Shown: positions 16,855 through 17,004 of the stretch, piece by piece | How positions within the stretch are numbered: position 1 is the stretch's first letter | Layout of the letters: each line of letters opens with the position of its first letter | Source of the DNA: an uncultured Eikenella sp. | GTDB taxonomy: Bacteria; Pseudomonadota; Gammaproteobacteria; Burkholderiales; Neisseriaceae | DNA length: 32,000 nucleotides | Direction of reading: 5' to 3' | Assembly: GCA_963515595.1 (NCBI GenBank) | Contig: CAUPYH010000010.1 | Location: forward strand, 1,382-33,381 | Notes under the pieces: model-generated | The model's input: only the letters and a program-made list of their open reading frames with translations | Databases searched by the model: none | Told to the model about the DNA's origin: nothing | Position numbers and translations under genes: made by a program

Positions 16855-17004
16855 ATGCCATTTTATAGTTATGAAGAATTTGAAGAAGCCGTTGGAGAAA
16901 TCGACGATGATGAAATGGTAGATGATTTCCATACTTGGGAAGAGCTTCAGGAAGAGTATCCGGATGGCGTATTTGACGAAGATGCCGAATTTATCCCGTT
17001 CTGA
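16855..17004 (+). CDS. hyperacidic 49-aa phage protein with an SSB-tail-like C-terminus
   Basis: Hand-translated: MPFYSYEEFEEAVGEIDDDEMVDDFHTWEELQEEYPDGVFDEDAEFIPF. It has 20 D/E and no K/R. A strong GAGGAG RBS lies 5 nt upstream. It is below the ORF-track cutoff. Confidence 0.5.
   Translation: MPFYSYEEFEEAVGEIDDDEMVDDFHTWEELQEEYPDGVFDEDAEFIPF

Follow-up and report, generated by a model that had tools for sequence, protein, structure and literature searches.

We analysed a window of 32,000 nucleotides (nt) from an uncultured Eikenella species (contig CAUPYH010000010.1, positions 1,382 to 33,381 of the forward strand), and refer by "the window" to this whole stretch. It carries a filamentous prophage, located between mutS and pncC, and directly 5′ of the major coat protein gene of this prophage lies a small open reading frame (ORF) encoding a hyperacidic protein of 49 amino acids (aa), here called the 49-mer, whose ending resembles the C-terminal tip of bacterial SSB (single-stranded DNA-binding protein). 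All the prophage genes that we list are on the + strand (Table 1). They include an initiator of the Rep_trans family, a Zot-like assembly ATPase, TspB-like and DUF2523 proteins and an IS110-family transposase, and by this gene content the context of the ORF is an Nf/MDA-type Neisseriaceae inovirus prophage of Eikenella. An initial annotation of this DNA, made from its letters, had assumed an inovirus, and the presence of these genes, together with those of a pV-like protein and a major coat protein, bears this out.

The 49-mer contains 20 Asp and Glu residues (41%), one His and neither Lys nor Arg, with a net charge of approximately −20 at pH 7, and it ends in ...DEDAEFIPF. Translation of the ORF confirmed what the initial annotation had said of its coordinates, of its 20 acidic residues, of the lack of Lys and Arg and of its ending. 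The extreme composition is seen in one reading frame only. The codon of Phe49 (TTC) is followed by TGA, so that Phe is the very last residue and its alpha-carboxylate is free. The predicted pairing of the ribosome-binding site (RBS) with the anti-Shine-Dalgarno sequence is −8.6 kcal/mol, and for all the remaining prophage genes except the major coat protein gene it is weaker, from −1.0 to −7.8 kcal/mol. The earlier description of this RBS as the strongest in the region therefore stands against those genes, but it ties with the RBS of the major coat protein gene (−8.7 kcal/mol). With a grand average of hydropathy of −0.8 and no hydrophobic segment, the 49-mer is not a small hydrophobic, membrane-inserted protein of the pVII/pIX kind. 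The initial annotation had considered such an acidic product out of place at a position where pVII and pIX are expected; the 49-mer is indeed not hydrophobic, but a hydrophobic ORF of 41 or 45 aa lies directly upstream, and the acidic gene is an optional extra that replaces nothing. An AlphaFold2 (AF2) model of the 49-mer had two helices (residues 6 to 13 and 18 to 34) and a tail, at low confidence (mean predicted local distance difference test score, pLDDT, of 57).

Table 1. Features of the prophage region in the window and, in the last row, copies of the gene of a second hyperacidic protein (the 121-mer, see text) with positions at the loci named. "Cassette" denotes the optional 230-nt segment described in the text.
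Feature	Positions	Strand	Remarks
Rep_trans initiator	14645-16036	+	
Candidate pV-like ssDNA-binding protein	16040-16360	+	phrog_4994; acidic tail absent
71-aa ORF	16374-16589	+	
Small hydrophobic ORF	16655-16792 (45 aa, TTG start) or 16667-16792 (41 aa, ATG start)	+	Candidate pVII/pIX-like
Low-diversity block	16787-17056 (270 nt)	+	Mean pairwise difference 0-0.05 (flanks 0.13-0.20)
Left 14-nt direct repeat TTAACGTTATCCGG	16789-16802	+	Repeat family D1; cassette boundary
Shine-Dalgarno GAGGAG	16844-16849	+	5 bases 5′ of the ATG of the 49-mer
Hyperacidic ORF (49-mer)	16855-17004 (stop codon included)	+	Translation MPFYSYEEFEEAVGEIDDDEMVDDFHTWEELQEEYPDGVFDEDAEFIPF
EFIPF ending, resembling the SSB C-terminal tip (codons 45-49)	16987-17001	+	Stop codon directly 3′
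Right 14-nt direct repeat TTAACGCTATCCGG	17019-17032	+	Repeat family D1; cassette boundary
Major coat protein gene	17084-17293	+	Weak matches to Pfam Phage_Coat_B and to major-coat PHROGs; directly 3′ of the acidic ORF
101-aa ORF	17312-17617	+	
238-aa protein, transmembrane and acidic	17614-18330	+	
Zot	18436-19563	+	
TspB-like protein	20217-21881	+	
DUF2523	21911-22198	+	
IS110-family RNA-guided transposase	22306-23337	+	Right end of prophage
121-mer copies (proteins P0006, P0007)	L033 3174-3536; L037 2981-3346; L038 8001-8366		

The C-terminal tip of SSB (SSB-Ct), which in E. coli reads ...MDFDDDIPF, serves many genome-maintenance proteins as their docking peptide (PMC5872125). In complexes of the tip a hydrophobic site takes up the terminal Phe and the upstream acidic residues lie on a basic ridge, while ExoI has two sites, A and B, and a second, upstream Phe of the tip occupies the second one. 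In the 49-mer, I47-P48-F49 places a Pro at −1 and an aliphatic residue at −2 from the terminal Phe (a natural variant has V47), and the acidic residues D41, E42, D43 and E45 are found near the tip, with Phe at −3 and Ala at −5. Besides the terminal Phe there are additional Phe residues at −3 and −9. The resemblance to the E. coli tip that the initial annotation had put forward holds for the terminal Phe, the Pro and the Ile, but only partly for the acidic run. Like the tip of bacterial SSB, the 49-mer has an acidic stretch, though with the Phe and the Ala just mentioned, before Ile-Pro-Phe at a free carboxyl end; unlike bacterial SSB, it has no Gly/Pro-rich linker, carries Phe rather than Asp at −3 and shows no homology (Pfam). 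It also lacks the oligonucleotide/oligosaccharide-binding (OB) fold and is not an SSB itself, as judged by the lack of Pfam and PHROG matches, its length of 49 residues and the two helices and tail of the AF2 model. In the literature we did not find descriptions of a free-standing phage mimic of the SSB tip or of a tip-bearing protein without a DNA-binding domain.

The 49-mer is predicted as a gene in many metagenome assemblies (cluster P0001; 44 member sequences, 76 contigs), and its genomic contexts are all of one phage type with differing host insertion sites. The sole species-representative genome that carries the ORF is a metagenome-assembled genome of an uncultured Eikenella. In an index of 5.8 billion proteins its only relatives were 49-aa proteins at least 92% identical to it and truncated copies. 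A full HMMER search of 1.84 billion representatives added a single match (P0005, E = 5e-4, 28% identity), which is probably compositional. Scans against Pfam, PHROGs and PADLOC, known DNA-mimic families included, gave no family match, and tblastn against GenBank phages gave one spurious match (E = 10).

A second hyperacidic protein with this type of ending is encoded in a sister lineage of Nf-like inoviruses. The lineage was found by a metagenome scan with the 101-aa protein of the window, to which its own 101-aa protein is 51% identical; a scan with the coat protein yielded nothing usable. The second protein has 120 to 121 aa and a charge of approximately −32 (the 121-mer), and its gene lies between an ORF for a transmembrane and acidic protein and the TspB gene. 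It ends in DPDLDDDDEIPF, ...DDDDGEIPF or ...DDDDDEIPF, following the pattern D(L/S)DDDD(-/G/D)EIPF, and thus carries the full acidic run of an SSB tip (DDDDEIPF). No family match was obtained for it, and its relatives fall in three clusters only. The host flanks of the sister lineage carry the kingDUS core, a Kingella-type uptake-sequence dialect that differs from the dialect of the Eikenella hosts of the 49-mer. The two proteins are alike in being hyperacidic, orphan, cytoplasmic-looking inovirus proteins that end in xIPF, whereas the 121-mer is longer, is encoded at another gene position, in phages of hosts with the kingDUS core, and has no significant similarity to the 49-mer. BLASTP between them gave E = 31, and their best local alignment was matched in score by 262 of 2,000 composition-preserving shuffles (13%), and by 556 of 2,000 (28%) when the tip was left out. 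MAFFT aligns their C-terminal halves at 31% identity, and homology of the two is not supported by the BLASTP and shuffling results.

Between the 121-mer alleles of L038 and L037 the ratio of non-synonymous to synonymous substitution rates is 0.54, compared with 0.04 for the pV-like gene, and the changes are concentrated in residues 30 to 73, the last 48 residues differing at two positions. The tip itself does not vary, and synonymous changes are found in the codons of its Ile and Pro. Frameshifted copies of the gene were found in L034, L035 and L064. The AF2 model of the 121-mer also had low confidence (pLDDT 39.5); both models are too weak for a comparison of folds, and they are compatible with partly disordered proteins.

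In 117 related inovirus loci there are 3,610 + strand ORFs with 1,791 distinct C-termini. IPF endings were found in the families of the 49-mer and the 121-mer only, and other orders of I, P and F occurred as endings zero to two times each, never with an acidic tail. By our own estimate from typical residue frequencies, the chance of a given tripeptide ending is approximately 1e-4 per protein, yet two of a handful of hyperacidic families of these phages end in IPF, which argues against coincidence. Another hyperacidic family, of 79 aa, is encoded in other Nf-like phages (L066 6985-7224; L069 3123-3362); it reads MFEDDFEYEQGASYGG... and ends in SGYGSF or SGYSLL, which is not SSB-like.

The acidic ORF resides in an optional cassette. 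The locus L023, whose pV-like protein is identical to that of the window and whose coat gene is 98% identical, lacks exactly 230 nt carrying the acidic ORF. In the window the cassette is bounded by two direct repeats with the consensus TTAACG[T/C]TATCCGG, and the alignment shows a single copy of the repeat in L023. The right repeat doubles as the left arm of an inverted repeat (TTAACGC/GCGTTAA, 17019 to 17025 and 17036 to 17042). L027 also lacks the cassette; upstream of its hydrophobic ORF lies another hyperacidic one (...SDDYDDY), the visible part of which covers positions 3 to 119 of this short contig and ends in ...DEELDSDDYDDY before the stop codon. In related phages such as Dulem virus 50 and L025 nothing lies between the ORF of 67 to 79 aa and the coat gene. 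Among the loci that bear the cassette it is 98 to 100% identical, while the adjoining hydrophobic ORF is 82 to 92% and the coat gene 80 to 98% identical, and a sliding window over 11 loci delimited the low-diversity block of Table 1. L026 carries the cassette although its replication module is different and its pV-like protein has only 30% identity. As the cassette is nearly identical where the flanking genes have diverged by 13 to 20%, the simplest reading is that it spread recently and horizontally, intact, across diverged backbones, and such a spread suggests that it is useful. The hydrophobic and the acidic ORFs have similar upstream leaders (16644 to 16667 and 16829 to 16852; repeat family D2), and similar 24-nt ends are found at 16654 to 16677, 16779 to 16802 and 17009 to 17032. 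By these boundaries the two small genes look like exchangeable units with common borders.

It could be argued that the ORF is untranslated or without function, that the 270-nt block hitch-hikes or acts in cis and that the ending is a coincidence. The 49-mer is, after all, an orphan with near-identical copies only, its cassette is dispensable, and its polymorphisms are mostly non-synonymous: seven haplotypes carried D18G, D19A, D24Y, E42Q, I47V, H26N and W28stop, a nonsense allele, against one synonymous change, although this test of selection is limited by the near-absence of diversity. Within this small variation six of the seven haplotypes retain the tip-like ending; I47V is seen in one and the premature stop at codon 28 in one. 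The initial annotation had named the conservation of the terminal IPF as a point on which its reading could be checked, and every full-length variant does keep (F)IPF, once as FVPF. As for a role in cis, the block folded as single-stranded DNA (ssDNA) was as stable as its shuffles (z = −0.01), it had no Rfam match, and promoter-like and terminator-like sites were no commoner in it than in shuffles; we therefore rejected the reading of the block as a cis-element or RNA. The strong, well-spaced RBS, the confinement of the extreme composition to one frame, the second family ending in IPF, which speaks against coincidence, and the spread of the intact cassette over diverged backbones, which suggests selection, all count against a non-functional ORF, and we consider this explanation very unlikely.

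SSB tips also occur on other phage proteins. When IMG/VR was scanned for the exact patterns DDDIPF-stop and DDEIPF-stop, there were at least 120 matches to each (loci L117 to L356), where about ten would be expected by chance in the whole of IMG/VR, a rough estimate from information content. Among the matches listed, phmmer detected the OB domain of E. coli SSB in 34 of 117 ORFs ending in DDDIPF and in 29 of 120 ending in DDEIPF. Many of the remaining ORFs are probably non-canonical SSBs, and one examined ORF that did not match the OB domain had weak matches to SSB PHROGs. Other listed ORFs without a match to the OB domain include superfamily 2 (SF2) helicases of approximately 560 to 640 aa (e.g., L124, L159, L193) and small helical proteins, phrog_1811 (L125, L146, L154, L200) among them. 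When homologues of phrog_1811, a family of unassigned function, were gathered without regard to their ending, 59 of 94 ended in [DE]DDIPF and the others were six residues shorter and tipless. Since the tip is present in these 59 homologues and missing from the rest, it is a portable add-on, and judged by all these sequences many phage proteins other than canonical SSBs carry the SSB tip as a portable module. None of the 240 DDDIPF or DDEIPF loci among the matches listed resembles the inovirus studied here. We did not find such tips on phage proteins other than canonical SSBs described in the literature as a general phenomenon. The SSB-tip reading of the 49-mer, first raised in the initial annotation, thus gains independent support both from these proteins and from the unrelated-looking 121-mer with its near-canonical tip.

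Bas52_0087, an SSB-like protein of a phage with the tip FDDDIPF, was reported as a trigger of the defence system DRT10 and linked to host ExoI, and interference with host ExoI and ssDNA metabolism was proposed for it (bioRxiv 10.64898/2026.04.29.721553). Phage SSBs and SSB-like proteins of this type resemble the 49-mer in being phage products with the tip of host SSB, but they have OB folds and bind ssDNA, whereas the 49-mer has no DNA-binding domain. The phrog_1811 subfamily shares with the 49-mer a small size (73 aa, helical), no detected OB fold and an SSB-type ending at the very C-terminus, which is optional within the family; unlike the 49-mer it is not hyperacidic, has the canonical DDIPF tip and is found on contigs of marine-type double-stranded DNA phages, and the two are not homologous. 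In T7 gp2.5 and T4 gp32 an acidic C-terminal tail mediates protein-protein contacts, and the terminal aromatic residue of gp2.5 is critical. The acidic tail is what these proteins have in common with the 49-mer; their tails, unlike the 49-mer, are attached to a domain that binds ssDNA and bring in the replisome of the phage itself, and an inovirus encodes neither polymerase nor helicase. Judged by sequence, the 49-mer most resembles the phage proteins with a tip borrowed from host SSB, minus any DNA-binding part and with an extreme acidity.

The acidity itself invites another explanation, in which the 49-mer would be a charge-based DNA mimic aimed at a DNA-binding protein, be it a restriction enzyme or a nucleoid protein, Ung or another defence protein, with IPF not being key. 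The DNA mimics Ocr, ArdA, Ugi, phi29 p56 and the Neisseria proteins DMP19 and DMP12 are small and strongly acidic, belong to mobile elements and neutralise proteins that bind DNA, and the 49-mer is likewise small, strongly acidic (41% Asp and Glu, no Lys or Arg) and borne by a mobile element. Its cassette is optional and spreads in the manner of an anti-defence gene, and related phages encode hyperacidic proteins without IPF (...SDDYDDY in L027 and the 79-aa family of L066 and L069). Known mimics, however, have defined folds with a DNA-like charge pattern, do not depend on IPF-COOH and have no sequence match to the 49-mer, as seen in the Pfam, PHROG and PADLOC scans that covered their families, and the AF2 model gives no confident fold for a DNA-like display of charge. 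A mimic of this kind would also leave unexplained the exact IPF-COOH ending of two dissimilar proteins in phages of two host genera, and we regard it as improbable.

The gene may alternatively supply an acidic tail in trans to an OB-fold protein, either the pV-like protein of the phage or host SSB, and so tune how host SSB, pV and the coat protein replace one another on the ssDNA of the phage. Acidic tails that fold back onto the DNA-binding clefts of their own OB folds are established for T7 gp2.5, T4 gp32 and E. coli SSB, the pV-like protein of the window has no acidic tail, and the gene lies between the replication and pV block and the coat gene, with a matching strong RBS. L023, however, has an identical pV-like protein but no cassette, and L026 has the cassette with a pV-like protein that is 30% identical, so that the cassette is not required by any particular pV, nor bound to one, and to this possibility too we assign only a small chance.

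The reading that we favour, with a probability of roughly 0.4, is that the 49-mer is a free-standing decoy or adaptor that mimics the SSB tip and docks onto host proteins that are partners of SSB. The ORF would then be a real gene of the filamentous prophage, optional in the manner of a moron and strongly translated, and its product a soluble cytoplasmic peptide, the working part of which would be the free E-F-I-P-F-COOH behind the acidic run. The terminal Phe with its carboxylate, together with the Pro and the Ile, would enter the SSB-tip pocket of one or more SSB-interacting host proteins, while the acidic residues would rest on the basic ridge beside the pocket; candidate partners are ExoI, RecJ, RecQ, RecO, RecG, PriA, Pol III chi, DnaG and Ung. 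Since the 49-mer has no DNA-binding domain and has the strong RBS and the gene block in common with the coat gene, it could be an abundant soluble competitor or adaptor. At levels like those of the coat protein it would compete against the tails of host SSB on DNA, or else it would bridge a partner to something else, and by either route host enzymes or defences would treat phage ssDNA differently. The phage might gain by shielding its ssDNA from nucleases and glycosylases, by altered recombination or restart, or by evading a defence linked to SSB or ExoI. The sequences show how the gene is built, that it lies on a cassette that has spread, that the tip recurs and is conserved, and that it is portable among phage proteins; we infer that the ORF is translated, that the peptide docks, onto which partner, and what the phage gains.

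Several observations weigh against a decoy or adaptor of this kind. The Phe at −3, where SSBs have Asp or Glu, and the Ala at −5 make the match to the tip imperfect; the cassette is dispensable, being absent from L023; the seven non-synonymous changes (including the stop) against one synonymous change provide no signal of purifying selection on the 49-mer; and AF2 modelled both proteins with little confidence (pLDDT of 57 and, for the 121-mer, 39.5). In addition, the SSB tip is essential, and a global block of its interactions is expected to harm the host, which is hard to reconcile with the chronic, non-lytic life of the phage unless the 49-mer is selective or tightly regulated.

A broader version of the decoy idea, which we hold to be rather doubtful, is that chronic ssDNA phages of Neisseriaceae evolved free-standing hyperacidic "SSB-tail decoys", devoid of a DNA-binding domain, at least twice, and that these, produced in amounts like those of the coat protein, titrate a specific host partner of SSB, or a defence linked to the SSB tip or ExoI, and thereby protect or re-route the ssDNA genome, as an extreme case of a wider phage habit of fitting proteins other than SSBs with the host SSB tip. 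The SSB tip is a hub for replication, repair and recombination on ssDNA and has been proposed as an antibiotic target. If the 49-mer is a minimal, gene-encoded tip peptide, phages could manipulate the SSB hub by mimicry without binding DNA, the peptide would be a ready probe or inhibitor scaffold, and it may help to explain how filamentous phages guard long-lived ssDNA from nucleases, glycosylases and ssDNA-sensing defences. A lead of wider reach may lie in the DDDIPF and DDEIPF tips on many phage proteins other than canonical SSBs, helicases and small helical proteins among them.

Other features of the prophage and of its host were also observed. The 238-aa protein has a single transmembrane segment, and its C-terminal half, which is hyperacidic (59 Asp and Glu residues), varies among otherwise close relatives (L023, L026, L029), and the sister lineage has analogous transmembrane and acidic ORFs. 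Close relatives of the phage are inserted at other host sites, beside mlaA, an M16 peptidase gene, opa and tbpB-like genes. The 12-mer AGGCTACCTGAA is found in about 40 copies in the window, against 0.5 expected by chance, and fits the published description of the Eikenella dialect of the uptake sequence, with A at +4 and CTG at +6 to +8 (PMC3630211). It often forms inverted pairs 3′ of genes (e.g., 14209 to 14236 and 13548 to 13610) and is rare within the prophage (at 19927, and at 21880 with one mismatch). On the − strand of the window, at 5194 to 9043, there is a four-gene host cluster that consists of a small Ras-like GTPase (5856 to 6392) and ORFs of 219, 375 and 502 aa, the last three having no Pfam or NCBIfam matches.
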